A DNA stretch of 20,000 bases from Sarea resinae (taxonomy: Eukaryota): assembly GCA_026026165.1 (NCBI GenBank), contig JAPEUD010000102.1:48387-68386 (forward strand). The letters are read 5' to 3'. The position numbers were made by a program, and so were the translations under genes. Shown here piece by piece: positions 1-20,000 of the stretch. Numbering within the stretch: position 1 is the first letter of the stretch; every line of letters starts with the position of its first letter. The notes beneath the pieces were generated by a model. That model saw only the letters and a program-made list of their open reading frames with translations. It was not told the DNA's origin and did no database searches.

Positions 1-666
1 ACTTTCGTCGATGTAGCCAACGTCATCCCATCGGCTCTACCAGCACAAGAACTCGACCTTCTCCAGTCAAAGGCCCACAGTATTTTGCGCCGTCTGGGGT
101 TTGCCAATGGGGTTTTCCATGTGGAAGCCCGGGTCCGTAACTCAGCAATGAATTACATTGGGGCTGACGGCAGCATAGACCTCCATACAGAGACAGCGCA
201 CAACAGCAGCAACGGTACACCAACCGTCTTCTTGGTGGAAATTAATGCCCGCATGCCTGGGAACCAGGAAACAACCGCGATCGAGCGAGCCTACGGCATC
301 GACTACTACCCAATATACATGCTTTCGGCAATGGGTGAAACGGATCGACTAAAAAAGATGGCAGCGCCATTTCGGAACGGTCCGCAATACTGGTGTCAAG
401 TACTCCGCTTCCATGGATTTCATGGAGGCACATGGAACTCGGACGATGCGTGCAAGGACTTGATCTCGCGCCGGCCAGAACTCCAAGAGAACATTTCTCA
501 TCATCGATGCCTGTTCAAAAGGGGTCAGGTGGTACCAGCCCCTACTATCAACGTTGTCGTCTTTGTCGCCTACTTCGTCCTATTCTCTCGAAGGAGCCGA
601 GATCATCTTCTCCAGGTGGCAGAGGCTGTCCGGAGAGATTTTCATTATGACGTGATATCTTATTGA
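1..666 (+). CDS. ATP-grasp fold ligase (fungal L-amino acid ligase / carnosine synthase-like), C-terminal part; 5' end lies upstream of the window
   Basis: Frame is open from base 1 (TFVDVANVIPSALPAQELDLLQ...) to TGA 664-666. It carries the ATP-grasp motifs 'GFANGVFHVEAR' and 'VFLVEINARMPG' (E-x-N-x-R metal/ATP-binding signature), followed by 'YGIDYY'. Confidence 0.85.
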   Translation, partial: TFVDVANVIPSALPAQELDLLQSKAHSILRRLGFANGVFHVEARVRNSAMNYIGADGSIDLHTETAHNSSNGTPTVFLVEINARMPGNQETTAIERAYGIDYYPIYMLSAMGETDRLKKMAAPFRNGPQYWCQVLRFHGFHGGTWNSDDACKDLISRRPELQENISHHRCLFKRGQVVPAPTINVVVFVAYFVLFSRRSRDHLLQVAEAVRRDFHYDVISY

Positions 667-1033
667 TTTCAAGACAGGGTTGCTAGTGCACAAATATTTG
701 CGTCTTGACATAGCGGACATGCTGTCCATGATATTGTGTTTTTCATACCTACTTGCTATCCATCTACATACCTATTGAAATCCATATCTAAACTTCAACC
801 AAAACTTCGGCTGCTTAAAGGCCGATCTTGGCCGTAGAGCGAGAGACCTTTGCCTTTGACATTACGGCTGCAAACCTTTTGCTGTATCGAGAGATTGATC
901 AAGAAATTGATTTGCTAGCCCAGTCATTCGTTTTTCAGCATGGCTCTGTTAAAAGCCCGTGGAACTACTGATTGACGATCATGTCTATTCAAAGCCGGAG
1001 ATCTCGGTGAAAGGGAAGCTGAACGGCCGGTGC

Positions 1034-2338
1034 TCAGGTGCTTGACGTGGTACTTGGAGCAGGGAGACCTTCTGGGGTTTTGACCAGTGCCAACAAGGCA
1101 CCGCCGCCTAACTCCAAGATCCGCTTAGCAACAATGATACCCACTGCCTCGGCATCAACATCAGTCTTGACCAAGCCTGAGTGATGGGCCCGGATCTCAA
1201 CCCCTCCTTGAGGATGTAGCAATGTACCAATCAGATGAAGCACACCGGCTTGCCCATCAGTAGTAACGCTTGAATCCACAGATCCGCTGTGCAGAGAGCT
1301 CAGAACTGCAATTGGTGCGGAACAGCCACCTTGTAGATATCGCAATAGAGAACGCTCGGCGAGACATCGAACACGCGTTGGCCAGTGATCGATGGGTTTG
1401 ATGAGCTCGAGTGTCTTCGTGTCGTTGGAGCGGATTTCGATCCCCAGAGATCCCTGTCCCACCGCATGTAGAAATGTGGGTGCTGAGAGACGCGCGGTGA
1501 TACGGTGCTCGAGGTTCAAGCGTTCCAGGCCGGAAGTGGCGACGACGATCGCAGTGTACGGCGAGTCGCTGGCGTCCAGCTTCGCGATTCGAGAGTCCCT
1601 GAAGAACTTGTGTCAATGACGCAATGTGAGACAGCAAGGCACTTACACATTACCACGGCATTCCTGGACCAACAAGTGAGGACAGAAGTGCTTCAATTGC
1701 GCGGTGCGGCGAACAGAGCTAGTTCCAACGACGGATCCGGAAGGCAGATCCTCCAAAGAGCGATATGGAAGGCCGGTCTTCACCACCAGTGCGTCTGTGG
1801 GATCGTTGCGGTGTGGAAAGACGCCAATAGCGCAGCCTTCTGGGAGGGCGGTCGGGACATCCTTTAGGCTGTGCACAATAATATCGATATCTCCCGCCAG
1901 CAGTCGTTCTTCGATCTCCTTGGTCCACAGGCTTTTGGAGACGTCGGCCGAACTCTTGCCTGGCTTTGCGGCAAACTGTAGAAATGGAGTCGTCTTGTCC
2001 ACGTCTCCTTGAACAGCGTGCGTTGAGATGGGAAAGGAGAATCCATGATGCACCTTGAAGAGGGCTGCCGCTACGGACGAGGCCTGGATGAGGGCCATCT
2101 TCGACTTGCGGCTACCGATGCGGAGAGATCCAAAGAGGCCGCTGGCTGGGCATTGCGTTGGGGGATGCAAGGCCTGATCGGATTGCAGTTCGACGTATTG
2201 CTTCATTGCATCCATGTGCGAGAGAGCCGTCTCTGTCAACTCATGTTGCTCTGCGGCGCCGAGCGGATAGACGCCCGAGGCCGGTCTGTCATCACGCCCG
2301 TCGCCATCGCCATTGCCATTGCCATCTGGTTCAGCCAT
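1034..2338 (-). CDS. HEM3: Porphobilinogen deaminase (hydroxymethylbilane synthase), divergent; 2 exons (2338-1647, 1598-1034), about 418 aa
   Basis: Motifs RIGSRKSKMALIQ, LWTKEIE, DIIVHSLKDVP (catalytic Asp), VGTSSVRR, HAVGQGSLGIE and AERSLLRYLQGGCSAP (cofactor Cys). The 48-nt intron 1646-1599 (GTAAGT...TTGAC...TTCAG) joins the two ORFs into RGNV-DSRIAKLD. The start ATG at 2338 is inferred. Confidence 0.92.
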
Positions 2339-2370
2339 GTGACAATTGTGGAGGTGATGATTTGAGAAAG

Positions 2371-2402
2371 GTGTGTGTTGTGTGTTGTGTGTTGTGTTGT
2401 GC
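2371..2402. repeat. Imperfect GT-rich microsatellite (GTGTT/GTGTTGT units) just upstream of the HEM3-like start codon
   Basis: gtgtgtgttgtgtgttgtgtgttgtgttgtgc read directly. Confidence 0.8.
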
Positions 2403-2669
2403 GTGGAGGGAGAAATCCAGATCACGTCAAGCGACGCAATCAGGGAAGCGTCTTAGGAGACGTTCGACGATAAATCCATGGATGTCGGAAACACTGCCCT
2501 GGGAGGGACTTCCGACCCCGACCCCCGCCCCACTCCGCGCCCTTCTTATCTACCTTAAGCTTACCTCGTATTTTAGACCTCCCGGCCACCACATCTAACC
2601 GCTTGAATCGATCTTGCTGCTCTTAGTCTCTCGCCTCTACAATTTTCTACGATGCCCCGGCTATGAACC

Positions 2670-3931
2670 ATGGGACAGTTCATCTATCTCCGGTTGAAAG
2701 GTGGGCCGCTCTCCAATGTGCTCGAGTAGCATAATTGATAACCCTTTTCTTAGGGATCGTCTATTTTGCCAGCTGCCGTACAGATGACGACGAGACGGTA
2801 CTAGAACTTCTCACTCGAAGGTTAGCTGCCGCATCTCCAGAATCTTCATTCATTGCTCTACATTCGAGCACTTCGCTTCAGTGGCACCAGCAAGACGACG
2901 TGGTCAACCCGTTTGGTGATGACTGAGAATCCTGCGTAGCTGCCGTGTGGATCGTCGATCTGGATTACGACATACTTGAACTTCGCAAAAAGGATGAACG
3001 TCGAAGGATTGCGCTTGGCCGAGTTCGCCAAGGTCTTCCAAGCTCTATTGCCGACCTCGAGCTTCATGATCCCCTCCCGTCGAGAAGACACGTGATGCAC
3101 CTATGGCTATCGAACCCAACCTGGAATCCAAAATGCGACGCAACAGCGAGACAAAAGGCGTTTACAGCTAGAATGCTAGAAGATTTCTCACACCAATGGA
3201 GGCATATATCGCGAAGTCAATACAATACGCACACCTTTCAAAAACTTGCCAATGCAATACTTCGCATTGCCACACTCGACTTTAGCGTGGTTGAGGTGGC
3301 TTCATCACGGTCATCGACTCCCGGAGTGCTGGTGGAATTGAAAGACCTACCCTTTTGGGGGCCTCCTCAAGGACAAATCTTTCGCTGTGGTCGCGTATAC
3401 GTCGTTCTTTTACAACATCTTGAACGCGTCCTCCCTACTATCAATGGTGACCTTAGATCACGAATTTTGACTCATTCTTCGCATCCAACCAGAGACGATA
3501 TGCAAAGCATTACGTATCTTGTCCTAACGATTCGAGAAATCTTGCTGTTAAAGACCGACACTGCCGACACTGCCAACACTGTCGAGGACAGGCTCTTGAC
3601 CTACACCAACCCAGTGGCTTTCCTTGATGGGATTCATTCTCCGTCGGAGAAGGCATTGGAGTACTTGCTTATGGCAAATCCAACCTGCTCTCATTCTTCC
3701 ATCCATGAGCTGCCCCTAGAGATACAAGACTTGATACTGAGTGCACTTTCGATAGGCCCTATCGAAGCAGCTCGAGTCGGTTGCATACTTGATCTTGGAT
3801 CCTCTTTCGAATGGAAAACGGGCGGTCATGCTATCGAGAGGTAACCCAGATTTTCTGCACGGTCAATAGACAGCCCCGTCGAATCTCAGATCTGGCTTGA
3901 TGGTTCCTTTACTGGGCTGGCATACGAGTAG
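2670..3931 (+). pseudogene. Fungal hypothetical protein with a C-terminal F-box-like motif, interrupted by two in-frame stop codons
   Basis: Exon 2670-2700 (MGQFIYLRLK) and intron 2701-2753 (GTGGGC...TTAG) lead into one frame that runs to TAG 3929-3931, apart from TGA 2924-2926 and TAA 3842-3844. Plausible coding sequence continues past both stops (...FGDD*ESCVAAVWIVDLD...; ...AIER*PRFSARSIDSPVESQIWLDGSFTGLAYE). It contains the F-box-like 'IHELPLEIQDLIL'. Confidence 0.7.
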
Positions 3932-4517
3932 CTGCATCAGCCAGGAAGTCGCTCTTCAATGCACGTCGTGGTCAATCAGGTGCTTGCTATATATGGGACG
4001 AGCCGGTTCTTCCAAGTCGTTCGAGATCTCGGTGGCGAAGAAAGTCAACGCCGTCAAAGAACGCGCTCGATAAAGCCACCGACTACGATGTTCAAGACAC
4101 GACACAGATTTCCATGAAAGGAGGGCAAACCGATAACAAGGAATGGTGGGGGCTGTATGGCCACGTGGACGAGGAAGGAAATTCAACCAGACTGGATGAA
4201 ATCTAGGCTCTCAGGGAATACATCCAGCCGACCAAGTAGATAGATCTAATGTACGTATGCGCCCCCGAAGCGCCGCGAGGGATGTTCTGGTATAATGTTT
4301 CGTTTGACGTGTCGGAGCTAAGAGAAGTTCAAGACGACGCAACGGCAATACCTAAGGTAGGTACGAAGTACTTTGAGGCAGGGCTCTGTCGAGCATTCCC
4401 GTTTGGTTTAGCGGCAGTGGAATCTTGAGTGTGTCATGACAAACTAACTAAACACCAACAAAATCCGTACGTCTCGACAACGAGTTCCTATCCTGATTGT
4501 AACACCCAAACAAAAGT

Positions 4518-5389
4518 ATGGCCTCAAATACTGCTGCATTCGACCTAGGGCCGCTTTACAGAGGTCCCTGGCAACAGTATACAAACAAAATCGGCCAAGT
4601 CTACTATCAGAATACCGCTAATCGAGCGGTTCAATATGCGATACCGCGAGGTTGGGAGGATGCAGCTACTGTGAGTACGCTCCAAATCTTTGACCTGCCG
4701 TGCGATAATTTCCGCTAACCTTAGAAAAGGACAAATGGACCCGCGACGCTTCCAAAACATGGCCGCAATGGTAATACTCAGATCTCTGCATCAGCCGTGC
4801 TCCAGCAGTAGCATGCTCGCCACGGGCAGATAGTTGACAACTCCATAGGAACAACGATCGGACTGGGAGAGCAGTTCTCATCGACCCGAATCCGCCACCT
4901 CCACAAACCTACCTCGACGACCCTGTCATTCGAGCGCATATTCTGTCACTGCAGCGTGCCCCCGAATCAGATGAGCATCTGTATCGAGTGCCTACGACAG
5001 AAGTTATCTGTATGCTTTTCCCGAGGCAGGAAGGGTATAGTGTCGTTGAGACCGGGGTCCAAACTTCGCTCCCGGTAATCACTGTCCTCGAGGTCTTTCG
5101 CAGGCCGGGGGGGACATTGCATAATTACGAGCACCTAATTGTCGAGTGCAGAAAGATGGGGTGTACGGTCGCGGCCGCCGAGCCCGAGCTGCATGACGCT
5201 CTTGCGACTTGCAATCATGAGAGTAAGAATATCTATGGACTGATTCAATGCGGCTTCCGTCTCCAATTCTACAAGCATGAGAATTTCACCTTTGGAAGGA
5301 TTGGCCCAACAATGCATCTTGTAGATGACGCAAAGAAGGTCATGGAAATGCTCGAGCATCTGAAGGCCAATCCTTTACCAGGAATATGA
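4518..5389 (+). CDS. 244-aa protein with N-terminal WW-like domain(s) and a C-terminal PD-(D/E)xK-like domain; exons 4518-4670, 4730-4770, 4849-5389
   Basis: Introns 4671-4729 (GTGAGT...GCTAAC...AAG) and 4771-4848 (GTAATA...TTGAC...ATAG) give one open frame. The WW pattern is GPWQQYTNKIGQVYYQNTANRAVQYAIP. The C-terminal pattern is FPRQEGYSVVE...PVITV...LIVECR...IYGLIQCGFRLQFY. Confidence 0.7.
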
Positions 5390-6155
5390 ATTTCTGCGAG
5401 CTGGTCACGAGGCATAGAATTTCTACAGTTAGAGATTGATAGAATAGAGGCATGGTCGTTATGATAGACAACTGAGCAGAGCTAGAACAATTATGAATAT
5501 TTCTCCCCAAGGCCATTTAGATTTGCAGTGAAAAGGGGCTCTCTCTCGAAGTTGAATTGGCTACCTATATTTTAAGACGAGAAAGCTGTCGGAGCTCAAG
5601 GCATCAGTAGTGCCGCAATGGTCTGCGTTAAGGAAGGTTGTCTGCCTAAGAGCGATAGAGCCAAGCGAGCGGTGTAACAGAAGGCGCCCTGCCTCTCTGC
5701 CCGTATCAAGAGCTGTCGAGAAAAATCTATTACATTACATGCATCGAGAAATGGGTTTCGGTGGTTACTCGATAGCAATTCGTTTTTTCGGCGACCTCCG
5801 AAGCGCCGGCTTGCAAGACAAACATCAGGAACACGACCGCTATCGAAAAACAAAACATCGAGTGTTAGTAAGGACAACCATTCGTGGACCAGCAATTGGT
5901 CCCGCTCTAGCTGAGCGGATGTTGTGGCACATTGTGGAGAAGTGGGGAAGGAGATTCATCTCACGTGGGGAAAATCGATCGTAAGACCGCCTGACGGAGA
6001 CCGTTAGAAAGCGTGTCGATCGGGGTCGAGGCCGTGATAAGAGAGCAACTTGACTACATCCAAATCCATTGATTATAGCACCTCTGAAAGTTCCCAAAAA
6101 GCGAGTTGTGTATCATCTTCTCTGATCTCAGAAGCCGTTTGATTCAGGAGCAAAG

Positions 6156-7653
6156 ATGCTCTACACCCACGCTACCATCATCACGGTCGACAAGTCTCGG
6201 AGGATCATAGACGACGGCGCCATCCAGGTCGAGTACAACCGGATTACAGACATTGGCAAGACCGAGACCTTGAAAGGAAAATATCCAGACGAAGAAGAAT
6301 GTGACTTGACCGGTCGGATCATTGTCCCAGGCCTTGTATCAACTCACATACATACGGCTCAGACGTTGATTCGAGGCGCGGCCGATGATCTCGAACTGGT
6401 CTCATGGCTCTGCGAGAGGATCTGGGTGCTGCAAGGCAACTTTACTCCTGAGGATGGCTATGCTGCAGCACGTTTGAGCATCGGAGAAATGTTGAAGTCG
6501 GGAACAACGTGTTTCCTCGAGAGCATGGTAATCTCTCCCATCCCTTATCTTCCCGGTATCGAAGGATGAGGGTCTAACTCGCGATAGTTTGCCGACCGAT
6601 ATGGCTTTGATGGACTATGTCGCGCAGTGGAAGAAAGCGGCATCCGGGGATGTCTCGGAAAGATTGTCATGGACGTTGCCAAGTACGCAAAAGATGACGG
6701 CTGGGCGATGCATCCCGGACTGGTTGAAGAAGGACAGAACTCATTGCTAGGAACTGTAAAGATGTGGGAAAAGTGGAACGGGAAAGCCAACGATCGGATC
6801 CGAGTCTGGTTTGGTGCAAGGACGCCGGGAGGGTATGTGTCTGTGGTCTCACACCTGTCTCATCTCGCTGATGGTCCGCAGAGTATCGGACGAACTCTAC
6901 AGGGAAATGACGGCCATCTCCCGCAAAAGTTCCATCCCTATCACGATGCACTGCGCCGAAGTCCAAGCCGACCGCGACTTCTTCGCTTCCGTTTCGCACA
7001 CGCCCATGTCATATTGCGAGTCGGTCGGTCTACTTTCTCCCTCGACCGTTCTCGTCCATATGGTGCACCTCGACAACTCTGACATCAGAACGTTGTCCTC
7101 AACTGGCACTCACGTCGCGCACTGTCCCACATCCAACGCAAAATTGGCATCGGGGATCTGTCGAGTGCCCGAGCTCCAAAAAGCGGGTATCAATATAGGA
7201 TTAGGCACGGATGGCGCGCCATGCAATAACACCTGTGATCTGTTCCAAGAGATGAAACTCGCCGCCATTATCCACAAGAGCATCTCTCATGATCCCACTG
7301 CAGTACCGGCGGAATCTGTACTCGAAATGGCCACTATCAACGGAGCAAAAGCTCTGGGCTTAGACGATAGCATTGGCAGTTTGGAGGTCGGCAAAAAGGC
7401 GGACTTTGTCGCGATCGATTTGAGGGCAATACATTTGCAACCCTGGTTCAGTGCGGTCAGTGCTGTGGTATACACGGCAACAGGAAGAGATGTCGACATT
7501 GTTGTGATAGACGGAAAGATGGTTGTAAAGGGTGGGCAGCTACTGACTCTGAATGAAGCGGACATTGTTACAGAGGCGAAGTGGAGAAGTAATAATATTC
7601 TACAGCGAGCAGGACTACGAGAGAAAATAAAAGATCGGTGGCCTACTGTGTGA
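6156..7653 (+). CDS. Metal-dependent amidohydrolase, AtzA/TrzA/MtaD (5'-methylthioadenosine/SAH deaminase-like) family; exons 6156-6527, 6588-6832, 6882-7653, about 462 aa
   Basis: Motifs PGLVSTHIHT (HxH), EMLKSGTTCF, TMHCAE, LVHMVH, HCPTSNAKLASG, GLGTDG and ATINGAKALG...GSLEVGKKADF. Canonical introns 6528-6587 (GTAATC...CTAAC...TAG) and 6833-6881 (GTATGT...CTGAT...CAG) join three ORFs in frame. Confidence 0.92.
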
Positions 7654-8905
7654 ATTATCTCCGCTTCTTAAGTGTAAGAGCTAGGGTTTTAGCAGTTAAT
7701 CAGTCGTTTTATTTTATTGTTTCTGTGAGGCGCGCTGCTATATAGTAGGCAAATAGGCATGGCGCGGATGAGCCGGGTTATAGTAGTCTTTTCAGCGCAC
7801 GTAGGAGCAGGTTTGCCTATTTACTAGACCTTATATGTAGCTTCGCCAACTTATTTTTCCTCCTTTGCCTAGGATTCTGTTAGATCCGAACGTTCTCGTT
7901 CGGCAGACAACCATTCTGCTTTAAGAGATTCTAACTGGGATTGAGAAGCATTCAGAGTTTGTGCCCTGTGCTGATCCTTATCCAGGGTTGTCTGCGTGGT
8001 ACAGGTCGCTTAGGATGAGAAACTCCCTGCCTGTGCCCGTGCTAATACTCGTTTTCTCGGCGGCTGAGATCTGTCGATTCCGGACATATCATTGTTTGAG
8101 ATCTCTAACGCCTTACATTTTGCAGAGCCTTCACTACCGGACACTGACTGTGCCTTTTGGCATTCTCGAATAACATATCGAACACATTCTGTTCTAATCG
8201 CAGAGATTGTTTCGCCTCGAAGCTGCAACTCTAGTGTGACTTTCGCTTCAACAAGACCAAATGCGAATGGGGCCATTGCATTTTAAAAGAGGTAAATCCT
8301 TTTGATCTTTCCACAAGTTCAAAAAATGAGGTTAGACAGGGAAAATTGGGCGAGCGACGAGATCCGTTCCGTCTTGAGTTGTCTGTTCCTCGCGATCCTA
8401 ATCAGCACCTCCCACCCAGGCGAACTGCATATTGCCAGATTGTCGATATCGAATCATTGTTACCTGATCGGTCTTCAGCTCTGTTGCATTGAAGGTGCTG
8501 TGCGACCTCGCCATTGTCGACGACATACAACTCCTCTGTCCTCGTCCTTGTTGTTGTCCTCATGTAGGACATCTCATGTACCACTTCATGGCTGGTGGAA
8601 TAATCCTGATGAGCCCAATGCTGCCGAGTGTGACAGTTACGCAACTGACGAATGAGTCGGTACTCTTCACGCCGGACGCCGGGCGCCGAGCCACTCGGGA
8701 GGAAACAAGTCGGCGTCCAAACGAGCCAATCCCACGATATCCATGACGAGTATCTAAGGAATGAGAAACAGGTAATCAACGGCTGCGCACTCTATCGCTC
8801 CCCGCTTGCAGTCGGACGTTGCTTTACACTATTTCAGTCGAAGAGCTTCAAGAAAGAAATATCACGAATCTCTCAACTCGATATGAGGTTTGTGTTCCAC
8901 TGAAT

Positions 8906-9923
8906 ATGTCGTCAAAGATAGATGTGCATCATCATTACTACCCTCCGTTTTCCGTTGAAGGCAAGTTTCCAATCCAATCCAGTCTGCTCCGATAAGAATC
9001 GATGGATGACCCTGGAAACAGCCATCAAGCGTGCCGGTGGCGACCCTTCGGGATGGTCCATTCCGTCGTGGACGCTTGATGCCGACAAGGCTATCAACAA
9101 CGTCGTAGGGACCGCAACGACCATCCTGTCGCTGACGGCACCTGGTGCCCCTATCGAGAAAGACACGGCTGATGCCGCGCGCCTTGCACGTCAGGCCAAC
9201 GAATACGCCGCGAAATTGCGTGATGACGAGCCGACCAAGTATGGGTTCTTTGCCGCTTTGCCGTCAATCGTTGACACCAAGGAATCCCTCGAGGAGATCG
9301 CGTACGCGCTAGACGTGCTCAAAGCGGACGGCGTCACCCTCTTCACGCGCTACGGTGAAGACAGTTACTATTTGGGCCACCCAAGCTTCCGACCCATCTG
9401 GGCCGAGCTGAACAGCCGGAAAGCCGTCGTCTTTGTCCATCCGACCCATGTCGACTTGAGCCTCGTCAACGAGCACTTGCCTCAACCGATGCTCGATTAT
9501 CCCCACGAGACATGCCGAACGGCCATGGATCTCATTGTCAACAACAATATCAAAACCTACCCGGATTGCAAGATCATCCTCTCGCATGCCGGGGGAACCT
9601 TACCCTACCTCATCTACCGCGCCGCAGCCATGCTGCCATATACGCCGTGCGACATTGGAAAGTCGACCCAAGAGATTGTCGAGGAAGGGCGCTCATTTTA
9701 TTTTGACACTGCCATCTCCAGTAATAAGTATACGCTGGAGTTGCTCTTTGCGTTTGCAAAGCCCGGCCATATCCTGTTCGGATCTGACTTCCCAAACGCG
9801 CCGACGGAATCCATTGAATATTTTACTTCGACGCTAGAGGAGCTCTGGGGTGATCACAGAGAAATCGAAAGGGATGCGGCGTTGGCTATTTTGCCGCGTT
9901 TGAGACAAAAGTTGACGGGGTGA
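8906..9923 (+). CDS. Amidohydrolase-2 family decarboxylase (ACMSD / 6-methylsalicylate decarboxylase-like); exons 8906-8960, 9022-9923, about 318 aa
   Basis: The spliced N-terminus [30 protein letters not shown] carries the metal-binding D-x-H-x-H. Other motifs are [57 protein letters not shown] and ILFGSDFP. Confidence 0.9.
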
Positions 9924-10418
9924 TAATATATCTAATGGCTCAGTGATACGATTCTCTGATGAAACTAGATGCCAATGACGCAGAAAGTATTGAAAGAAGT
10001 AAGCTGTTCATGAAAGGAACGACAAAAGAAAAGTAGAGTGAAATGATAATATAACGGTCGAACTCTGATGCGAAAATCAACCCGGGGAAGAAACGTATTT
10101 ACACGACGTTAGCTAATAAACCCTGGATTAGCTCGTAATGTAGACGATCTATCGGAGAGGCTCTGACTGACTCGCTCCTATGACCTTAGTGGTGCTCGTG
10201 ATAATTGGCTTGGGCTCGTTGTTAGAAGAGGCTACATGGAACAGTTTGGAAGCTTGAGAGCGATCATGAAGTTGTCTGAGCGAATAGGCGACTACTCGTG
10301 CAAGAGCGGCGACGCGACAGCAATGCTCACTATTTCACCACCTTTCGAGGATCAATTCCGTTTCCCATCTGTCGGCATCGTACTTGCCTCTGCGACAGCT
10401 CCCTCTGACCGCTTCTCC

Positions 10419-11203
10419 TCACAAGCTTGCGAGCTGCCTGTTAACAGCATCCTTGTCCCAGATTCTATCTCCCCCTTCTCCTAGACCCGCCGGATCCATA
10501 TTTGAGCAGGATGTTTCGAACCAGTCCATCTTTTCTATCTGATCTTGGGTCGGGCTTTGTGCTCTGTAGCTATCTCGCAACTCATTCCACCCATCTACAC
10601 CACCCACATCCTCCGCACATGGATGCCCTTCCCCATCCCGACAGATGAATCCTGAAGTGCTGATATTCCTGACTTCGCCGGTGTCTTCTCGGCCCACAAT
10701 TGTAATACAGTGATCCCAGCGGTCCCCAAAATCGTACTCATACTCGATAGTGGCGTCTGCGAATGATCTGTCCTCGAAAAGCTCAGACAGTCGTGTTTGT
10801 AAAGCATGCTTTTCGGGGGTAGTCTCTAGTCCCAACGTGGCATTCATGTTGGCGCGGTGGATCAGATCGTTGCCACTGTCGTCGCTGATCCTAAGAGCGT
10901 TCTCGGCGGATTGTAGAAAGAGCGACGGCCGTAGGAGTCGTTCTGTCCACCAGCGCTTCGGTGAGGTTCGAGGAACTTGAAGGCATAGAGATGAGTGGTG
11001 GCCCAATTAAAAGCGATTTGTATGGCGCGGTGCAGCTCATCAAATGTAGCTGTTGGTGGACAAGACAATGTACGACTGATGGCGGGGTCTTCGATCTCTC
11101 CAGGACATAGGTCGATCTTCAAGATATAGTTTCGAGGTAGCAAGTTTGGGGGCCGTGGGGGTCCGAAGACCCTCTTTCCGTTGATATGCGTCGCCGCGGA
11201 CAT
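10419..11203 (-). pseudogene. pRiA4b ORF3-like (MM3350-like) protein, split by an apparent 1-nt frameshift near 10890-10897
   Basis: The N-half (ORF 11203-10862) has RTLSCPPTATFDELHRAIQIAFNWATTHLYAF. The C-half (ORF 11006-10419) has IEYEYDFGDRWDHCI and CRDGEGHPCAEDVGGVDGW. Both halves match the family but are in different frames, with no consensus intron between them. Confidence 0.75.
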
Positions 11204-11420
11204 CCTTTTAATCGTCGCCTAGGAACTCTTAGGAACTGAGATTGATTACCGAGATGGTGTACTCTGGCTGCGGAGGGACAGGGACACTTGCTGAGTAAGG
11301 TAGTGAGTAGGTTGTTGATTGTTGACGCGGGAGCGCTGACTAGGGTGTGGGAGCGCGTTCGCTCAAAGCAGCGATAAGTGCCCGCATACCATAGTAGGGA
11401 CGACTCGCTTGTGAATTACG

Positions 11421-13702
11421 TTAAGTTTCTAGTACATTATTAAAAAATGTAAGAGGAGAGTAAAAGCCAGAAGGGAAATCTAATAAGTCTTTTTATTAGT
11501 TGCAATTAGCATGACCGAGTGTGCTTCTTACATTGATCGTCGAACGTTGCGCCAAATTCATTCAGAGGTATGGCATCAAAATCCGTCAGAAAGTCGTCAG
11601 CAGCGGGCCCGCTACCGTCCTCGGTAGACGCTTCTGTGTTTCCAAGGACAACACCTAGAGCTTTCGCTACTTTTCTAGCTTCCGCAGATGCCGTACTCAT
11701 TTGAAGCCAAATCTTATGCGAGATCGTCAGTCGTTGTCGAATCTCTTCAGCCCTAGGCGACCACGTTGTCTGTCCTCCAGTCTCAGGCAATTCAAATTTA
11801 TCGACGTCTTGAAGGTAGAGACAGAGCACGCTCGTTGCGAGGAGAACATCCTGGTTGAAAATATGGGTGACCTTCCATCTAAGCTGACACAAACGACCAA
11901 ATGGCTGAGACTCTTCGTGAAGCATCTGTTGAAACGATAGAATTTTGAGTGCGGAATCTAAACAAATTCGCACCGACTCCCTGTCCCGCTCTTGAGACTG
12001 TCGAACTGGGTAGCTGATCAAAGCTCTCCGGTACAGGAGGATGCGTGATTTGTAGTAGGTCGTCTCTACACTTACCCGCTGTACCACAAGGTTTGGACTA
12101 TCCGTGATAGGGTGTGGTAGAATTTCCCAGCGCAGCACGGCCGGAATAGCACGATTGTGTACGTCTTCAAGAAGTGCGTCGACCTTGATGACCTTGTCAT
12201 AGGAAGGGGGATTAATATCGGTGTTGACGTCGCAAATCAAGCCGAGGGCTGATATCAGTCGTCCTTTTGCAATGAGAGGCAGCACCGGCGTCCATTCTGT
12301 TTCTGGCCTCGGCGGAGGCATCTCAGTCGTGTCCTCTTCAAAGTCACAGTCGCGCAGATTACGGGGCTGTTTGGTATCGATGTGCGTATCTGTGGCATTT
12401 CGAGGAAGGCCCATCTCCAAGGAGAGAACGAGATCTAATTGAAGGATTGTAGTCCAGATGCGTCTACGCATCTCACCCTCGAATGGAGATATTCCGGGAA
12501 AGTGATCTGGGTCCCGGTGATAGCCCATGCGCATTGCAAGATGAAGGATCAGACTGATCAAAAGCCAGCCATCGGTAGCGCTATCTTTCAAGAGTACAGA
12601 CTCTCCAGTAAGGAACGTTATGAGGGTTTCCAGGATATATGGTCCTCCCGTCGTATACCTAGCCAGAATAAGACACTGAACGGCCTTCTCACGGAAGTCA
12701 TCCTTCATGGTAAGATATTCCGCCTTGAGCGATTCGGCTCGTCCGTCGGTGAAGTCAATGGTGAAGGTCTGCAACTGCGCAGCAATATATAACATGGAGA
12801 ACAGGAGACCGATCCAAGCGATAGAAGTTGCAGACGGATCTTCCCAGAAGGTTTCATACTAATCAAATGTCAGACTGCTTGTAATCGGCCAGGTTAGAAA
12901 GAACCCACCTCTCGGAGAAACTTCTTGCCATGAATGAGATCTACAGCACACAGTCAATGCCTCTGAGAGCGGAAAGGAAGCTTGGATGTACCGACATGGA
13001 GTGATAATGTAGGAATCGAAGTGAAGGGCTATGAGGCGGTCAACAACTGGACGAGGAGGAACCGCAGCCAGTATCTCATCTCGAGTTGCATGACGGTTCG
13101 GGCCATAGAACAAGCGTGACCCGGGCGGAGCCTTGCTATTAATGACCAAGTCCTCCTTCAGTCCTCTGATTTTGGTCAGAATGGCCTCCCAATGGACACT
13201 CTGGACATAGCTGGTTCCAGACTCGCGCAACTTTAGGGTGCCAGGGTCTGCCGGGGATGCCGCTTCACCTTGGGATTTCTTTGGACTCCGGATCTCCGGG
13301 GACCCATCTGCGAATGATGGCGCGCTTGGTCTCGGCGATTTCGGTGCGGGCGGACTTAGGAGTGATGGGCCTTTCATGAGCGTCACGACAAGGCTCTCCA
13401 GTTCCGAGATTCGGCCATGGAGGCTGGTGGACTGTCGCGGAGCAACGGACCGCTGAGCGTCGGGCGTCGAAGAAGAAGATGTTGTCGCATAATTGCAGGG
13501 GTCGGTGAGGCCACGCCTTGAGCAAGCTCCGCATGGGTGCTGTCGGTCGCACCTCAGCCTTGCAAAGTTCAGTGTGCACGACTTGGTGATGGTGATGGCT
13601 ATCGAGCACGTACTTTCGGTGTCTGCAAGGGTCGCAGGAAACCTGGACTTTGTCTCGGCGTCGATTTGGCGGCGGACGCGGACGGTGAGCAATGTCGGCC
13701 AT
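11421..13702 (-). CDS. Zn(II)2Cys6 transcription factor with fungal-specific TF domain; exons 13702-13614, 13558-12996, 12940-12909, 12858-11532, 11479-11421, about 689 aa
   Basis: The spliced zinc cluster is SCDPCRHRKLRCDRQHPCGACSRRGLTDPCNY. The middle homology region is LAMRMGYHRDPDHFPGISPFEGEMRRRIW. Four 50-55 nt GT-AG introns restore a single frame; the last exon is the least certain. Confidence 0.9.
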
Positions 13703-14262
13703 GGTGTGACTGGATTGAGGCGATTGCGGAGCTCAACCTCGTCGAGAAAGAAGATGTCTGGCGGCGCCAACCGAATGGGTTTTATCGAAAATTGGTCTTC
13801 GTTCTCCTTTTGACGGAGATTGATGATAGAGACAGAGTACAACTAGTATATTGTCGGATTCGAAACTGAGTTCGTTTGGGACTATCGACTGATATGGATG
13901 GGTATGAGGTATGAGGCGATGGAGAAAGGAACGACCGTCCGACCGTCCGACCGTCCGCGCGCCGCCCACGACGCCAGCTCCTCCTGCTCCTCCGACCCTC
14001 CGCGTCCGCTCGCTCTCCGAGCTCCCCTTCGATCAAGCAAATCTCCCATTTGGCTCCGCATTGACGAACCGTTTTGCGGATTTAGTAGCTGGCGCAATGA
14101 GCCCTTGCCCAAAAAGAAGAAAAATAGCCATGACTCCTCTACGCGGCCTTCTTCGTCCGGGCGTGGTCCGGCCCGCCTACCCTGCCTTCAAATATATATA
14201 TAGCAAGCAAAGCCTGGCACCCGTGAACAAATACGCGCCCATATCCCTCTCGACAGCATATC
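13703..14262. promoter_or_regulatory. Divergent (bidirectional) promoter shared by the Zn2Cys6 TF and the MFS transporter
   Basis: 560-bp gap between head-to-head start codons. It contains TATATATATA at 14193-14202, 60 nt before the MFS ATG, and many CCG/CGG triplets including (CGACCGTC)x3 at 13932-13957. Confidence 0.7.
13932..13957. repeat. Perfect 8-bp tandem repeat (CGACCGTC) x3.25
   Basis: cgaccgtc cgaccgtc cgaccgtc cg read directly. Confidence 0.9.
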
Positions 14263-15935
14263 ATGGCGGCCGACTGGGAATCCGCACATGAGAAGCCGGC
14301 CATATCGGAAGACGGCCACCATGACCAGCAATCGAGCGAGTCTGACCAAACAGCCATTGAACAAGAGACAAAGAACAATGTCGTCGACTGGGAGGGGCCT
14401 GACGATGCCCAGAATCCGCGGAACTGGCCAGCATGGAAACGCATGACCCAAGTCGTCTTCGCCAGCGCTTTCTTGCTCACCGCGTAAGGCAGTCCCTGTT
14501 CCTGCGCTCCTTTGGCGAAGCACATCCCGAATCCCATACTGACCAATACACACATACAGCAACCTCGCCGCGACAATGTTTGCACCTGGAGCGGCCTCGC
14601 TTGCTCAGGAGTTCCATATCACGAGTTCCACCATTGTCAGTCTCACCGTGTCCATCTACCTTTGCGGCATCGCCATTGGGCCAATGTTCATTGCACCGCT
14701 ATCCGAACTGTACGGACGCCTGGTGATCTACCACACCTGCAATATCTTTTACCTTGGCTTCATCATCGGATGTGCGCTGAGCACAAACACCGGCAGTTTT
14801 CTCGCTTTTCGATTCCTGGCCGGATGTGCTTCTTCGGGCCCATTGACAGTTGGCGGAGGAACCGTCGCCGACGTCGTCCCGCCAGCTCAGCGTGGGAGGG
14901 TAATGTCTGTGTTCTTCATGGGACCACTTCTGGGACCAGTAGATGGCATCACCCCACGCAAACCGTCATGACACTGACGATCCTTCAAGGTCTTGGGCCC
15001 CATTATTGGTGGCTTTGTGTCCGAATCAATTGGCTGGCGATGGACTTTTTGGATCATCTTAATCCTCGTGGGTAGAGCACAACCCCGACGATTCTTGAGT
15101 CGCTGACGGTTCGACCTAGGCAGGAGTATCATTTACCATATCAATCTTCCTCCTCCGCGAGACCAATGCCGCCGTGCTGCTAGGATGGAAAGCCGCTCGC
15201 CTCCGGAAAGAAACGGGCAATGCTGCTCTGGTTTCGAAGATGGATCGAGGCCTGACCCCCCGCCAGCTATTCCTCCGCGCTATTACTCGGCCAACAAAGC
15301 TTCTCATCCTGTCGCCAATCGTGCTCCTCCTTTCCCTCCTGTGCGCGTTCGTTTTCAGCCTCCTCTTTATGCTGTTCACTACGTTTCCCACGGTCTTTGA
15401 GGAACAATACCACTTCTCCGCCGGCGTTTCTGGCTTGTCATATCTCGGCGTTGGAATTGGAATGGTCGTCTCTCTCGGATTCTTTGCCACCGTGAGCGAC
15501 AAACTGCAAAAGGCACTTGGAGATTCGCCCAAACCTGAAGGACGCCTGAAGCCCATGGCGTGGGTCATGCCCGCCGTGCCCGTCGGCATCTTCTGGTATG
15601 GCTGGGCAGCCGAGAAGCAGACTCATTGGATCGTGCCCATCATCGGCACCTCATTCTTCGGATTCGGCTTTCTCTGGGTCATAATGCCAACTCAGCTCTA
15701 CATGGTGGATGCTTTTGGTCCCGAGGCTGCCGCCTCTGCATTGGCTGCGAACGTGATTCTCCGACTTCTTTTTGCAGCTTTCATTCCATTAGCAGGGCCG
15801 TCTTTGTATGCAGACCTAGGACTTGGGTGGGGGAATAGCGTCCTAGGTTTTATAGGGGTGGCTTTTCTTCCAGTGCCACTCTTGCTCTATCGTTACGGAG
15901 GGTGGCTTAGGGAGCGTTTTGCTGTGAAGCTATAA
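14263..15935 (+). CDS. MFS drug:H+ antiporter (DHA1 family, Mdr1/Tpo/Flr1-like); exons 14263-14483, 14560-14938, 14990-15067, 15120-15935, about 497 aa
   Basis: Motifs VDWEGPDDAQNPRNWPAWKR, APLSELYGR, FRFLAG, GGGTVADV, GPLLGPVLGPIIGGFV...GWRWTFW, LRET, KPEGRL and LGLGWGNSVLGFI. Three GT-AG introns each have a CTGAC branch site. Confidence 0.93.
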
Positions 15936-16879
15936 CGTTTCATGTTGATATAGACTTGTTATAGATCTATTTTACTATTTGCAGCGCTTTTCACAAGGAG
16001 ATTGTCGCGACTTTCTGCTATTTTATTCTATGTATAACTAGGTATAAATAATAGATTTAATGTCTCTACTACTACAGTTACAAGCATAAGTTTTGTGAGG
16101 GGGGTAGATTGCTAGGATTGCCTTAGCTGCCTCTAACCAATTATAGGGGCTAATTTACATGCTGCTTTTAATACTATATATATAGACTGTCTGTATTAAT
16201 AACTGCCTAGCAGCGATCTAGCATTAAATCTATCAGATTATTAAGTGTCTCTGTAGAAATTTAATCCTATACCTCTTATATAGTAAGCCTAAGCTTATTA
16301 GCAGACTATTGCTTAGGAAAATTATTCTATCTCTATTAACAACTAGAGTTAAACTTAAACTCTAAAAGTATATACTCTTTTTAACGATTATAATTAGTAG
16401 AAATAATTTAGCAAGAGTAGAACTCTAGTAGTAGAACTCTAGTTAGTTAATACTGTTAAAATACTCTCTTTCTTTAGGCGTATTATATCTTCTAATCTTC
16501 TCTATTATAATCCTAACTGTATTGCACTTTGTAAAGACGCTGTCTTCCTACTAATCTGCCCTTTGTTTAAGTAAGGCAAGTAAGCTAAAGTAAGAATTAA
16601 TAATGAAATTATAATAGTAGAATCGCGCCTCTCTACTAACAGCCTTATTAGATAATAACAACGACTATAAGGCTAACTCCTCTATCTCTAAATGCCTTTA
16701 GAGCCTTAGACTAGTATATGCAGTCTAATCTAGGTTAATTTTCTATTGCTAGCTTACTAGCTTAGATTTCACCTATCTAGAGTAAACTTAGAGTTAATTA
16801 AGAGTTAGAGTTCTAAGAGTTATTATAGTGAGCTAAGGTATGCTAGTAGCGCACTTAGCTAGAGCAGCAGCTGTAGTTA

Positions 16880-17001
16880 AAGAGAGAGAGAAGAAGAAGA
16901 AAAAGAAGAAGAAAGATAAGAAAGATAAAGAGAAGAAAGAAAGAAAGCAACTATTAACAATAATAATAGGCAGCAAGCAGCAGCAGCAGCAGTAGCAGCA
17001 G
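16880..17001. repeat. Low-complexity tracts: (GA)n/(GAA)n purine run followed by (CAG)n
   Basis: agagagagagaagaagaagaaaaagaagaagaaag... then cagcaagcagcagcagcagcagtagcagcag. Confidence 0.75.
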
Positions 17002-17002
17002 G

Positions 17003-17188
17003 TATTATTATTCTACTATAAGCCTTACTATTAGGTCCTTATTTGCTGTTAATATAGCTACACAATTTAAAATATTAACTACTACTTAAAGAATAGTTAT
17101 ACAATGCTTATAAAGAAGCGACATCTGCTTTAGGCCTAGTATTAAGACTATAGCCTACTTAATCTGCAAGCTATACCCTTACTACTAC
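17003..17188 (+). repeat. Diverged direct-repeat copy of 17938-18123 (RIP-degraded zinc-finger / DUF3505-like segment)
   Basis: Co-linear blocks are shared by both copies: attattattctactataagc, actattaggtcct, tgctgttaatatagctacac, tttaaaatat, ctacttaaag, tagtattaag, ctatagcctacttaatct, actactac. Confidence 0.85.
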
Positions 17189-17942
17189 CTTATTACTCTA
17201 CATTTTCTATCTACATTATAGTAGGTAAAAACACTGTCTTCTTACTAATCTTTACCTCTTTAAGGCATTAAACTAAGCCTAAGTAAGAATTAACAGTGTT
17301 TTCTTAACAGTGTTTTTATACCTGTTAAAAAACGCTCTTTGCCTACTAACCTAACTACTTTAATAGCTGCCTTAATTCTTACTTATATATCTACTCTTTG
17401 TTTATTTAATTGCTAACCTACTAGCGTTAATTTCCTACCCTTAGAGTTGCTCTATCCTTTAGAGTTACTTAGAGTTAGAGGTATTAAGAGGTGATTGCAG
17501 CTAGCTAAGGCAGACTAACAACGCACTTTACCTCTAGCGCTTATATAGCGCTTTAAGGAAAGAAGAAGGCTTGCTTATATCTAATCTACTAGCTGCTGTT
17601 TAAAGATTAAAAAACTTCTAGATAGTCTAGAAGAAAAAGCTCTCTATATATATACACTGCACCTACCTAGCCTGCTAGCTATTTAGCTAGCCTAGCTAGT
17701 AAAATCTACTAAAAGAGTTTAAGTATTACTTAGAGTTAAAAGAGGATTAAAAGGTTATTATAATAAGCTAAGGTATACTAACTACACACTTTACCTATAG
17801 TAGTGCTACTACTACTCTTAATAACTAGTAGCAGTAGCTGTAGTAAGTAGTGTAAGAATAAGAGCAATAAGAGTAGTAAGAGAAGTAAAAGAAGTAGTAA
17901 AAGAGATTAGGATTAAGATTAAGATTAGGATCGCGATTATTA

Positions 17943-19871
17943 TTATTCTACTATAAGCTAAACTATTAGGTCCTAATCTGCTGTTAATATAGCTACACTC
18001 TTTAAAATATAGACTGCTACTTAAAGGATAGTTATATAATGCTAGCTAAGAAGTAATATCTGCTTAGAGTGTAGTATTAAGGCTATAGCCTACTTAATCT
18101 ATATGCTATACCTTTACTACTACTAAATTGCCTTGTATTTCTTACTCTAGAGGCACTTACTAATAGCTTTACTTATTAAGACTATAGTTTTAGCATAGTA
18201 AATCGCTAGATTATATAGAAGCATAGTAATAAGCAGCACACCTAGTCTGCTAATTAAGAGAAAGAAGAAGAAAAGGACTCGCTAAATTAGCAGCTAGTTC
18301 TAGTGCAGACCTTCTTTACTAGCAGGCTGCAGCAATATTTTCTAGTGCAGCTAGCAAAAAAGAAGTATGTAAAGAGAAGCTATAATAATAATTAGCTAGG
18401 TAAAGCAGCCTCTAAAAATCTAGCTAGTTAGATCTAGCATGAGTTTAATACTTAGCAGGCTATATATAAGTAGAGTTAGGCTCTAATTAAGAGCAAGGTA
18501 TAGAAGACTAATTAGATAGGCTAGTTTAGTTGTATAGGCTAGCTAACCTACTTACACTATTAGAATATAGCCTACTTTCTCTATACTAGCAAGCTCTTAC
18601 TAAACTAGCGACTTAGCTAGCAGCAGTAATAAGAGCAGCAGTAGTAGTAGTAATAAGAGTAAGATTTTAACTGTATCTTAGGCTAAGTAGCTAAGGTCAC
18701 CTAACTAATAATTAAGCGCTATATAGCTAGGCTAGTAACCTTGCTATATAAGCTCTACTACTAGCTGTGTAGTAAGAAGCGCACTAAGGTGTACTAGTAG
18801 CTATAAGCTTAGCTATATAGCAATAAAGGCTAGGCGCACTATACTAACTATTAGGTGTGTCTAATCTGCTATTACCTATATATCTTTACCTACTACACCT
18901 TTACTATAGCTAATAATAACAATGCACTTAATATATAGCTAAAAGATGCTAATAAATTGCTGTATCTAATAGCAAAGCAGAATAAGCGCTTATAAGCTAT
19001 CTAAGAGTCGCTTAAGCTAGATAGTAATAAGTCCTTATAAGTTAACTATATGCTAGCCTTCTTATAAGCGCTAATCTTTTACCTACTACTAGCAGACTGC
19101 TTTAATAGCACGCTAATCTACTTCCTTACTATACTTAGCATTAACTCTAAAACTAATTAGCTATATATAGCGCTAGACTACTTCTTTTAGCTAGTAAGAG
19201 TAGTCTACTATATATAGGTGATTAAAGCTAAGGTGCTGCTGCTAGTAGCAGTGTAAGAGCAGCAAAGCCTAGCTAAGTAGAAGCGCTTCTTAGCCTAGTA
19301 TAAGAGATTCCTTACTAACAGCTTACTAAGCCTAATAAGTATAATAATTAGCCTGCTTATATACAGCAAGTATATTAGCTTATAGCAGCTAAGCACAACA
19401 ATAATAAGCTAGCCTAAGAGCGTTTAGTAGCTGCGCTTCTATAGCAAGCTAATTATAATTACCTACTTCTAGTAGATAGTGTACTAGGCAATTAAAGCTA
19501 CTAAGGCTATCCTCTAGCCTAAGCTAATATAGTGCTACTAACTAGATAACTGCTTTACTATTAACCTAGCTAGTATTAAGGATAATATAGCCTTTATATA
19601 GCAGAATTAGTCTTTCCTTAGTAACCTAGTAAATAGGCTTAATTAGAGGCTCTCTTTAATAGTAGCGCAAGTCGCACGCACTACTTAATACTTCTAGACA
19701 GTCTAGAAGAAAGAAAGAGAGAGTAGTAAAAAACCGCTCTAATAGCACAACAGCACTAGCTAGGAACTAGGCCTAGTTAGAGACTACTATTAGTATATAT
19801 AGGCCTTTCTTAAGCTGCTACTCTTTAGCTGCTATATAACTAGAGGCTAGCCTAGCTATAGCACTAAAGAG
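17943..19871 (+). pseudogene. RIP-inactivated, 3'-truncated telomere-linked RecQ helicase (TLH)-type gene; only the N-terminal DUF3505/OrsD-like zinc fingers and conserved middle region remain
   Basis: All motifs fall in one frame (codon starts divisible by 3). Raw versus de-RIP readings: Y*VLICC*YSY (YQVLICxxCGY, about 17964); FTY*DYSF...KHSNKQH (FTCQDCSF...H...H, 18168); VQTFF...QYFLV (18303); STLIYFLTILSIN (SxLIHFLAVLGID, 19107); FLTNSLLSLISIIISLLIYSK (FLADGSPSPMSTMISLLAYGK, 19308); FLKLLLFSCYITRG*PSYSTK (FLELLLFSCHMTGGQPGRGTE, 19806-19868). The family is recognised from memory of TLH-type proteins. Confidence 0.75.
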
Positions 19872-19875
19872 TCAT

Positions 19876-20000
19876 TTAGGGTTAGGGTTAGGGTTAGGGT
19901 TAGGGTTAGGGTTAGGGTTAGGGTTAGGGTTAGGGTTAGGGTTAGGGTTAGGGTTAGGGTTAGGGTTAGGGTTAGGGTTAGGGTTAGGGTTAGGGTTAGG
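19876..20000 (+). repeat. Telomeric repeat (TTAGGG)n, right chromosome end
   Basis: 20 perfect TTAGGG units plus TTAGG run to the end of the window, with the G-rich strand pointing toward the end. Confidence 0.99.

Follow-up and report, generated by a model that had tools for sequence, protein, structure and literature searches.

A five-gene subtelomeric cluster in Sarea resinae combining second copies of HEM1, HEM2, and HEM3 with an ATP-grasp ligase: a candidate pathway to a pyrrole-based small molecule

Background

In the genome of the fungus Sarea resinae (assembly GCA_026026165.1; 143 contigs, 25.5 Mb surveyed), a gene for a porphobilinogen (PBG) deaminase of the HEM3 type lies tail-to-tail with a gene for an ATP-grasp ligase, not far from a telomeric repeat array. 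The stretch analysed here, hereafter the window, comprises the final 20 kb (20,000 nucleotides) of contig JAPEUD010000102.1 (C5:48387-68386; window position = C5 position - 48386). Which function a divergent enzyme of heme biosynthesis could have at such a place, and beside such a partner, is the question raised by this locus. An earlier note, made from the letters of the window, had proposed a second HEM3 paralog at the edge of a biosynthetic cluster extending to the left, acting as a resistant target, as a heme supplier, or as a repurposed pyrrole-condensing enzyme.

The locus proved to be a cluster of five genes, in which ligase and deaminase are accompanied by second copies of HEM1 and HEM2 and by a gene for a transporter of the major facilitator superfamily (MFS). 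Judging from gene content and residue patterns, its product is probably a pyrrole-based small molecule. With a confidence just above even, we favour the reading that these five genes, which include no nonribosomal peptide synthetase (NRPS), make and export an amide of porphobilinogen or of a short polypyrrole.

Results

On C5, the genes follow one another in the order MFS (-), HEM1 (-), HEM2 (+), ligase (+), and HEM3 (-), and cover 12.4 kb in total (Table 1). As the earlier note had stated, the HEM3-like gene of the window is intact, being open throughout with a single short intron; its stop lies 367 bp from that of the ligase gene, and its start is 17,538 bp away from the telomeric array, i.e., within the 18 kb assumed. 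The predicted extension of the cluster beyond the left border of the window was likewise found, with the remainder of the ligase gene, HEM2, HEM1, and the MFS gene situated there.

In a whole-genome search, two loci each were found for HEM1 (C5 and C133), HEM2 (C5 and C55), and HEM3 (C5 and the canonical housekeeping copy on C2), whereas HEM4, HEM12, HEM13, HEM14, and HEM15 have one locus each, all of them off C5 (the HEM14 match, in three pieces, stays under the family cut-off). These counts are lower bounds, the assembly being possibly incomplete. The second copies of HEM1, HEM2, and HEM3, the only ones found in the 25.5 Mb of this genome, are situated within 10 kb, and their adjacency is beyond chance. 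The ligase gene is single-copy; a genome-wide search yielded no further member of this family. Identity to the respective housekeeping copy amounts to 74.5% (333/447) for HEM1, 69.5% (230/331) for HEM2, and 42% (139/329) for HEM3; the drift of HEM3, described as divergent from the start, far exceeds that of the other two. The possibility that C5 is a contaminant contig was rejected: it carries the only PHO88 match of the genome and thus belongs to this organism.

All five cluster frames are open and have consensus introns, GC content at third codon positions (GC3) is 0.54-0.59 across the four enzymes, and the signature of repeat-induced point mutation (RIP) is absent from window 1-16000 (TpA/ApT 0.61). 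Between the five genes, no further open frame of at least 135 aa was found, a search which a small multi-exon gene could escape. Concerning expression, the one sequencing run examined yielded a single contig of 180 bp, inside the ligase gene, which is too little to be informative.

The HEM3 protein matches PF01379 and PF03900 above their cut-offs and reaches 273.8 bits against TIGR00212 (hemC; cut-off 164). Across the queried exon it is 100% identical to a public protein (P0001) of 418 aa, which is also the length of the spliced gene product. The predicted model has the fold of hydroxymethylbilane synthase (HMBS), with template modelling (TM) scores by target length of 0.80-0.95 against human 7CCX and E. 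coli 1PDA. The cofactor and catalytic set is kept (C323, D160, K159, R77, R210, R211, R228, R234, R257), and equivalents of human Arg26, Ser28, Gln34, Asp61, Lys98, Asp99, Arg149, Arg150, Arg167, Arg173, Arg195, and Cys261 are all retained. A pseudo-enzyme was considered and rejected, since every cofactor and catalytic residue is present.

The active-site lid departs from this conservation: human Thr58 is replaced by Val109, and 22 residues instead of 12 lie between the GD and K anchors, i.e., the lid is 10 residues longer than in human and E. coli HMBS. Further substitutions are Phe119 (human Leu68) and Gln320 (human Glu258). In human HMBS, loop 56-76 serves to recruit PBG and helps in elongation, with Thr58 being important, and loop 257-263 shifts during chain growth (PMC10577081, PMC7907807).

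In a quick IQ-TREE tree of 72 rows (29 chosen sequences and 43 of the top 51 new profile matches, filtered by length), the HEM3 of the window falls in a fungal clade of 14 members (SH-like approximate likelihood ratio test, SH-aLRT, 100), apart from canonical ascomycete HEM3; it neither groups with the latter nor is it the sole copy of its genome. A tree with both HEM3 copies of the genome forced together is rejected by the approximately unbiased (AU) test (p = 5e-6; 25 rows, quick tree). The copy on C5 is a second paralog beside the canonical one on C2, as had been proposed, and its origin by a recent duplication in this lineage is rejected by the same test. Named members of the clade are from Talaromyces, Scytalidium, Xylographa, Toensbergia, Geopyxis, Coniocarpon, a dothideomycete, Aspergillus udagawae and relatives, and Clonostachys. 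At the positions of human Thr58, Leu68, and Glu258, the combination Val, Phe, and Gln occurs in 14/14 clade members versus 1/197 other sequences, and this lone outside sequence (P0373) looks like a further clade member. The lid comprises 17-33 residues in the clade and 12 in 154 of the 197 others; all these columns were partly included in the tree, which limits the independence of the signature from it.

Within this long-lid clade, seven full-length proteins that form a core group have in common an N-terminal helix followed by the motif PPxxCPA, which is conserved in the N-terminal extension of 9/9 core-group sequences examined (residues 62-68 of our protein, window 2135-2155). The long extension is missing in 6/6 sequences of the wider clade, one of which retains the Cys-Pro (CP) pair; the A. 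udagawae/felis protein P0322 of the long-lid clade lacks the extension. The motif might sense heme. The named hosts of core and near-core HEM3 proteins (P0001-P0008) are mostly resin-, wood-, or bark-dwelling (Sarea, Scytalidium, Xylographa, Talaromyces stipitatus, Toensbergia, Coniocarpon, Geopyxis).

The cluster HEM1 encodes a 5-aminolevulinate (ALA) synthase (ALAS) that exceeds the TIGR01821 cut-off (604.6 bits vs 338.55), and all three cluster heme enzymes pass their family cut-offs. On the predicted gene model, the cluster ALAS possesses no CP motif, whereas the housekeeping ALAS possesses three. The first exon does contain a CP if read in a different frame; 38 of 300 open one-intron models include it, with donors matching at most 3/6 consensus bases, and all 12 models with a full consensus donor are without it. 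The basic N-terminus resembles, by inspection, a mitochondrial presequence, and the glycine-pocket Thr (glycine-type Thr83) and the neighbouring Ser are kept, i.e., the enzyme is ALAS-type, not AlmA-type. The PPxxCPA of the HEM3 extension, which is also kept in Geopyxis, resembles the CP motif lost from this ALAS. CP motifs mediate heme feedback on the import of ALAS, and heme formation is reported to be limited by ALAS, PBG synthase (ALAD), and PBG deaminase (PBGD) (PMC3136693); the same CP-motif cysteines were deliberately mutated in A. oryzae to raise heme (PMC10940619).

Concerning HEM2, the cluster copy falls in its own cluster clade (FastTree, 57 rows). In an alignment to yeast 1H7O, it retains what we take to be the zinc cysteines, the two Schiff-base lysines, and the lid arginines. 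At otherwise shared positions, an Asp is changed to Val directly after the first lid arginine and a Tyr to Cys shortly past the second lysine.

The full reading frame of the ligase matches PF18130 and PF13535; its part within the window gives no Pfam match by itself. The predicted model (predicted local distance difference test, pLDDT, 87) has as its nearest solved folds the L-amino acid ligases 3VOT (BL00235), BacD/YwfE, and RizA, with which it shares the fold class at only 14-19% identity and from which it is set apart by some 200 additional residues at the N-terminus. The ATP and metal motifs of ATP-grasp enzymes, including E-x-N-x-R, are conserved. The enzyme is an ATP-grasp ligase of the L-amino acid ligase-like type and a putative amide-forming enzyme. 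Among 8000 candidates scored, the closest were a JGI protein (75%), ENA P0110 (54%), and TSTA_080410 of T. stipitatus (53%), and all four constitute one clade (FastTree support 0.994; 75 rows). Ligases of Elasticomyces and Teratosphaeria (P0112, P0113, P0115) join these four in a clade of seven with a support of 1.0; they have several arginine-bearing motifs in common with them. According to PMC12568646, this ligase family is poorly characterised in fungi, few fungal ATP-grasp enzymes belong to natural-product pathways, and FsqD of A. fumigatus, the example given in the earlier note, is biochemically uncharacterised.

A linkage of ATP-grasp ligase and HEM3 in another fungus, on which the proposal of the earlier note depended, exists in T. 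stipitatus, as inferred from accession order: the numbers of its ligase and of its long-lid HEM3 follow directly on one another (EED11430.1 / EED11431.1), on a contig of 96,371 bp. Furthermore, the ENA entries P0110 (ATP-grasp), P0193 and P0347 (HEM3 halves, Xylographa-like long-lid), and P0205 (HEM2, grouping with the cluster HEM2 with a support of 1.0) all list a 30,899-bp contig, on which the three genes are probably linked. The name T. stipitatus is absent from the best 120 of 8000 HEM2 matches. In metagenome DNA, the ligase query yielded no relative. The HEM3 query gave 279 confirmed stretches, of which the best 80 (mostly 31-40% identity) were aligned; reading frames were read at 2/80 loci. 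Among these 80 loci there was no ATP-grasp, ALAS, or MFS match, HEM2 matches at 16 had just 36-47% identity, as expected for bacterial hem operons, and one locus (L026) was long-lid. There, some 880 bp separate HEM3 from an ornithine-decarboxylase-type gene upstream of it on the same strand (L026:2-907 and 1786-2978).

The features of the cluster are collected in Table 1.

Table 1. Position of the cluster genes, of HEM3 segments, and of the telomeric array on contig C5 and in the window
Feature	Position	Strand	Remarks
MFS transporter	C5:38341-39945	-	516 aa; cluster member by adjacency only
Second HEM1 (ALA synthase)	C5:41051-42690	-	about 530 aa; without CP motif
Second HEM2 (PBG synthase)	C5:43985-45092	+	349 aa
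ATP-grasp ligase, whole gene	C5:46935-49052	+	686 aa; one in-frame 57-nt intron
ATP-grasp ligase, 3' part (3' third)	window 1-666	+	frame within window
HEM3 paralog, long-lid (porphobilinogen deaminase / HMBS)	window 1034-2338 = C5:49420-50724	-	418 aa
HEM3 exons	window 2338-1647 and 1598-1034	-	ATG at 2338, stop 1034-1036
HEM3 intron, 48 nt	window 1599-1646	-	GT-AG, consensus donor, CAG acceptor; predicted
HEM3 N-terminal extension (about residues 20-68)	window 2135-2281	-	predicted helix 28-51, then PPxxCPA
HEM3 remodelled active-site lid (residues 109-135)	window 1934-2014	-	Val109 (human Thr58), Phe119 (human Leu68)
HEM3 Cys323, dipyrromethane attachment site (human Cys261)	window 1322-1324	-	preceded by Gln320 (human Glu258)
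Telomeric TTAGGG x20.8 array	window 19876-20000	+	end of contig C5; context

The cluster as drawn excludes the reading frames to the right of HEM3. Directly adjoining are two without Pfam match (window 2927-3930 and 4838-5389), in the first of which no clear start codon is present close to where the frame begins. Two amidohydrolase genes follow at window 6126-9923, 4-7 kb to the right of HEM3, i.e., a PF01979 gene with introns and a PF04909 gene in a single frame. Window 10419-15935 contains a PRiA4_ORF3-like gene and then a transcription factor gene (-) divergent from an MFS gene (+), a regulator-pump pair adjoining the telomere. Among the C5 frames listed or scanned, this is the sole fungal transcription factor, 9 kb to the right of the cluster. 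Window 16001-19875 is an AT-rich, RIP-scarred subtelomeric block (TpA/ApT 2.18), and an apparent internal repeat was noticed by eye near window 16980-17150 and 17940-18110.

To the left of the cluster MFS gene (C5:26331-37066) lie genes for a CHAT-domain protein, a flavin monooxygenase, and an orphan of 545 aa, with a TauD dioxygenase further left; owing to these genes, the left border of the cluster is not fixed. The 545-aa frame gave no family or fold match (its predicted fold is of low confidence) and was excluded from the cluster. Among the C5 frames listed or scanned (35 scanned, a part of the total), there was no NRPS, second ALAS, or Zn2Cys6 factor.

Discussion

With HEM1 and HEM2 duplicated together with HEM3, the locus reads less like a single resistance gene and more like a dedicated module leading from glycine to a pyrrole. 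In the pathway that we favour, a pyrrole would be built from glycine and succinyl-CoA and capped with an amide. The extra ALAS would provide 5-aminolevulinate free of heme feedback on import, as the loss of its CP motifs suggests, and the extra PBG synthase, if active as its residues imply, would convert it to porphobilinogen. The long-lid deaminase would self-assemble its dipyrromethane cofactor as usual; in view of the altered lid and cofactor loop, its output would presumably not be the ordinary hydroxymethylbilane for heme, the candidates being a chain of fewer units, or one for which another partner serves as building block or as acceptor on release. The ligase would then link a carboxyl to an amino group, of which one belongs to the pyrrole intermediate (the last two steps may be interchanged), and the MFS pump would export the product. 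Porphobilinogen bears one primary amine and two carboxylates, and therefore PBG or its oligomers can serve on either side of an ATP-grasp reaction. This pathway is supported by the doubling of heme steps 1-3 only, with the extra copies adjacent to each other, and by the position of HEM3, HEM2, and ATP-grasp ligase each in a separate cluster clade. Further support comes from the loss of the CP motifs, from the strong drift of HEM3 with its catalytic residues retained, from the lid changes common to its clade, from the linkage in T. stipitatus and the ENA entries, from the L-amino acid ligase-like fold of the ligase, and from the VLB cluster described below.

Several observations weigh against it. 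The cluster has no transcription factor of its own, and no promoter word stands out, six 8-mers and one 9-mer occurring in three of the five upstream regions and none in four. The ENA linkage rests on equal contig size, not on DNA, and the linkage read in T. stipitatus covers ligase and HEM3, but not HEM1, HEM2, and the pump. The long-lid clade is wider than the link to ATP-grasp ligases: among the 8000 candidates scored there was no ATP-grasp match from Scytalidium or from three named Xylographa with core-type HEM3, and on L026 (3442 bp) the long-lid HEM3 adjoins an ornithine-decarboxylase-type gene, with no ligase. Furthermore, the residue pattern of HEM3 would equally fit a resistant target, and a doubling of ALAS, ALAD, and PBGD, the enzymes reported as limiting, fits a supply role (PMC3136693).

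Concerning the decarboxylase of L026, a dedicated source of amine would agree with an amine as acceptor of the released pyrrole chain, chance being also possible. We regard a broader and more tentative proposal as possible but somewhat less probable than its opposite: the long-lid clade would consist of repurposed PBG deaminases that keep the dipyrromethane primer and either stop early or use an amine in place of water for releasing the chain, and that would act together with ATP-grasp ligases or amine-supplying decarboxylases to give secreted, non-macrocyclic PBG-derived products, patchily distributed across ascomycetes. If true, an enzyme of one reaction would have a second chemistry, and the unexplained extra HEM3 genes of fungi would be explained.

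The first alternative is an antimetabolite with self-resistance: HEM1 (and HEM2) would supply ALA or PBG, an amide made by the ligase would block the heme synthesis of competitors, the pump would export it, and the long-lid HEM3 (perhaps also HEM2) would be the resistant back-up of the housekeeping enzyme. We consider this account unlikely. The cluster contains a second copy of an essential gene with its catalytic residues intact, which differs mainly at the substrate-entry lid, and long-lid copies also exist in fungi with no observed ligase link. A precedent is alaremycin, an ALA-analogue antibiotic made in Streptomyces by means of an ALAS homologue and exported by an MFS exporter (PMC9356726). 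However, the cluster ALAS is of the glycine type and not of the AlmA type, the alaremycin cluster as described there has no duplicated PBG synthase or deaminase, and no obvious role in resistance suggests itself for the conserved stretch of about 50 residues by which the core-group proteins are extended at the N-terminus. Moreover, the VLB cluster of Microsporum gypseum (see below) carries the same three consecutive heme steps together with amide-forming enzymes. Between a repurposed deaminase and a resistant one, sequence alone cannot tell.

The second alternative, an overflow of tetrapyrroles, appears improbable. According to it, the extra copies raise the flux to heme, siroheme, or exported uroporphyrin I or coproporphyrin pigments, the ligase being a bystander or a porphyrin decorator. 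All three enzymes exceed their family cut-offs, they are the ones reported as limiting (PMC3136693), the loss of CP would remove feedback, and it concerns the same cysteines that were mutated in A. oryzae (PMC10940619); Zhang et al. read the VLB cluster in this sense, as porphyrin production for iron (PMC3408471). However, no heme-protein motif was found on C5 in a crude scan with three patterns, HEM4 is single-copy, the association with the ligase persists in different fungal classes, and nothing in a supply role would call for fixing a change at Thr58, a residue of importance in the human enzyme (PMC10577081). A plain supply role accounts for the three heme genes, but neither for the retained ligase nor for the Thr58 change. 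Among the three roles proposed in the earlier note, the repurposed pyrrole-condensing enzyme fits best, self-resistance is a less likely candidate, and heme supply is the weakest.

Finally, a decaying or accidental grouping without joint function, as might be suspected in subtelomeric DNA adjoining a RIP-scarred block, is very improbable given the five open frames with consensus introns, the enzyme GC3 of 0.54-0.59, the absence of a RIP signature from window 1-16000, the catalytic residues kept despite 25-58% divergence, and the recurrence of the linkage in T. stipitatus.

Comparison with known systems

Human and E. coli HMBS possess the same fold and catalytic set as the cluster HEM3, which differs from them by its longer lid, by Thr58Val, Leu68Phe, and Glu258Gln, and by the helical N-terminal extension with its CP motif.

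A second HEM3 is by itself not unusual, as extra PBG deaminase genes with no assigned function are reported for all Aspergilli (PMC3136693), and the premise of the earlier note that HEM3 is normally single-copy was too strong. Examples are An01g08640/An18g02970 of A. niger and Afu3g13120/Afu5g11760 of A. fumigatus (PMC3136693, PMC12482460); nitrite does not induce Afu3g13120 (PMC12482460), which we infer to be long-lid. In the accessible parts of both sources, a clustering of the extra genes with HEM1/HEM2 or with a ligase is not described.

The alaremycin cluster almABCE of Streptomyces comprises the ALAS homologue AlmA, an N-acylating enzyme, and an MFS exporter (PMC9356726). AlmA has Ser82/Gly86 and prefers serine, whereas the cluster ALAS has Thr/Ser at these sites; the four alm genes, as described there, include neither HEM2 or HEM3 copies nor an ATP-grasp ligase (PMC9356726). 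Conversely, AlmA-type Ser82/Gly86, an acetyltransferase, and an oxidoreductase are absent from the set of five genes found here.

The organization found in S. resinae is most similar to that of the VLB cluster of Microsporum (Nannizzia) gypseum (Mgyp_05781-05791), which comprises 12 genes, among them a PBG deaminase, a PBG synthase, two ALAS-like genes, an NRPS, an ABC pump, and a Zn2Cys6 regulator (Zhang, Rokas, Slot 2012, PMC3408471). This clustering was confined to M. gypseum and not seen elsewhere among the 128 fungal genomes surveyed (PMC3408471); Talaromyces was not found in the genome table of that study. The reading as porphyrin production for iron acquisition is a guess (PMC3408471), repeated in PMC3445971. 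In the literature searched, in which subscription journals, including those on natural products, are thinly covered, fungal heme-gene clusters occur only in PMC3408471 (cited by PMC3445971), and no paper joins ATP-grasp ligase and PBG deaminase.

Both clusters contain an extra PBG deaminase, PBG synthase, and ALAS together with a transporter, and both have the order deaminase, one gene, synthase, ALAS, and pump; a possible orthology to VLB-3, -5, -6, and -11 is judged from published tree labels only. VLB-11, "hypothetical" in PMC3408471, stands in the same gene tree of the supplement as MGYG_07050, an ATP-grasp protein homologous to the cluster ligase (37% identity); thus, as read from these labels, VLB probably has the ligase too. 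Despite this similarity there are differences: the 12 genes of VLB with NRPS, two ALAS-like genes, ABC pump, and Zn2Cys6 regulator are opposed to five genes with one ALAS and an MFS pump, with no NRPS, and with the ligase situated between HEM2 and HEM3.

The cluster of S. resinae is real; it shares the heme-gene trio with VLB and lacks the NRPS and the regulator of the latter. It constitutes a new, NRPS-free five-gene form of a cluster kind that, in the literature searched, is described in one bioinformatic report, in which the porphyrin gene cluster had no product and was treated as unique to one dermatophyte (PMC3408471). With five genes in 12.4 kb, short introns, and no NRPS, it is small enough for rebuilding in a laboratory host. 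Standard cluster finders easily miss clusters without polyketide synthase, NRPS, or terpene cores, and the long-lid signature provides a simple search handle for such clusters. Owing to the small size of the cluster and to the related pair in T. stipitatus, the question of the VLB product becomes directly testable, and the outcome could be either a class of pyrrole-amide products with altered chain control by the deaminase or a natural inhibitor of heme synthesis together with its resistant target.

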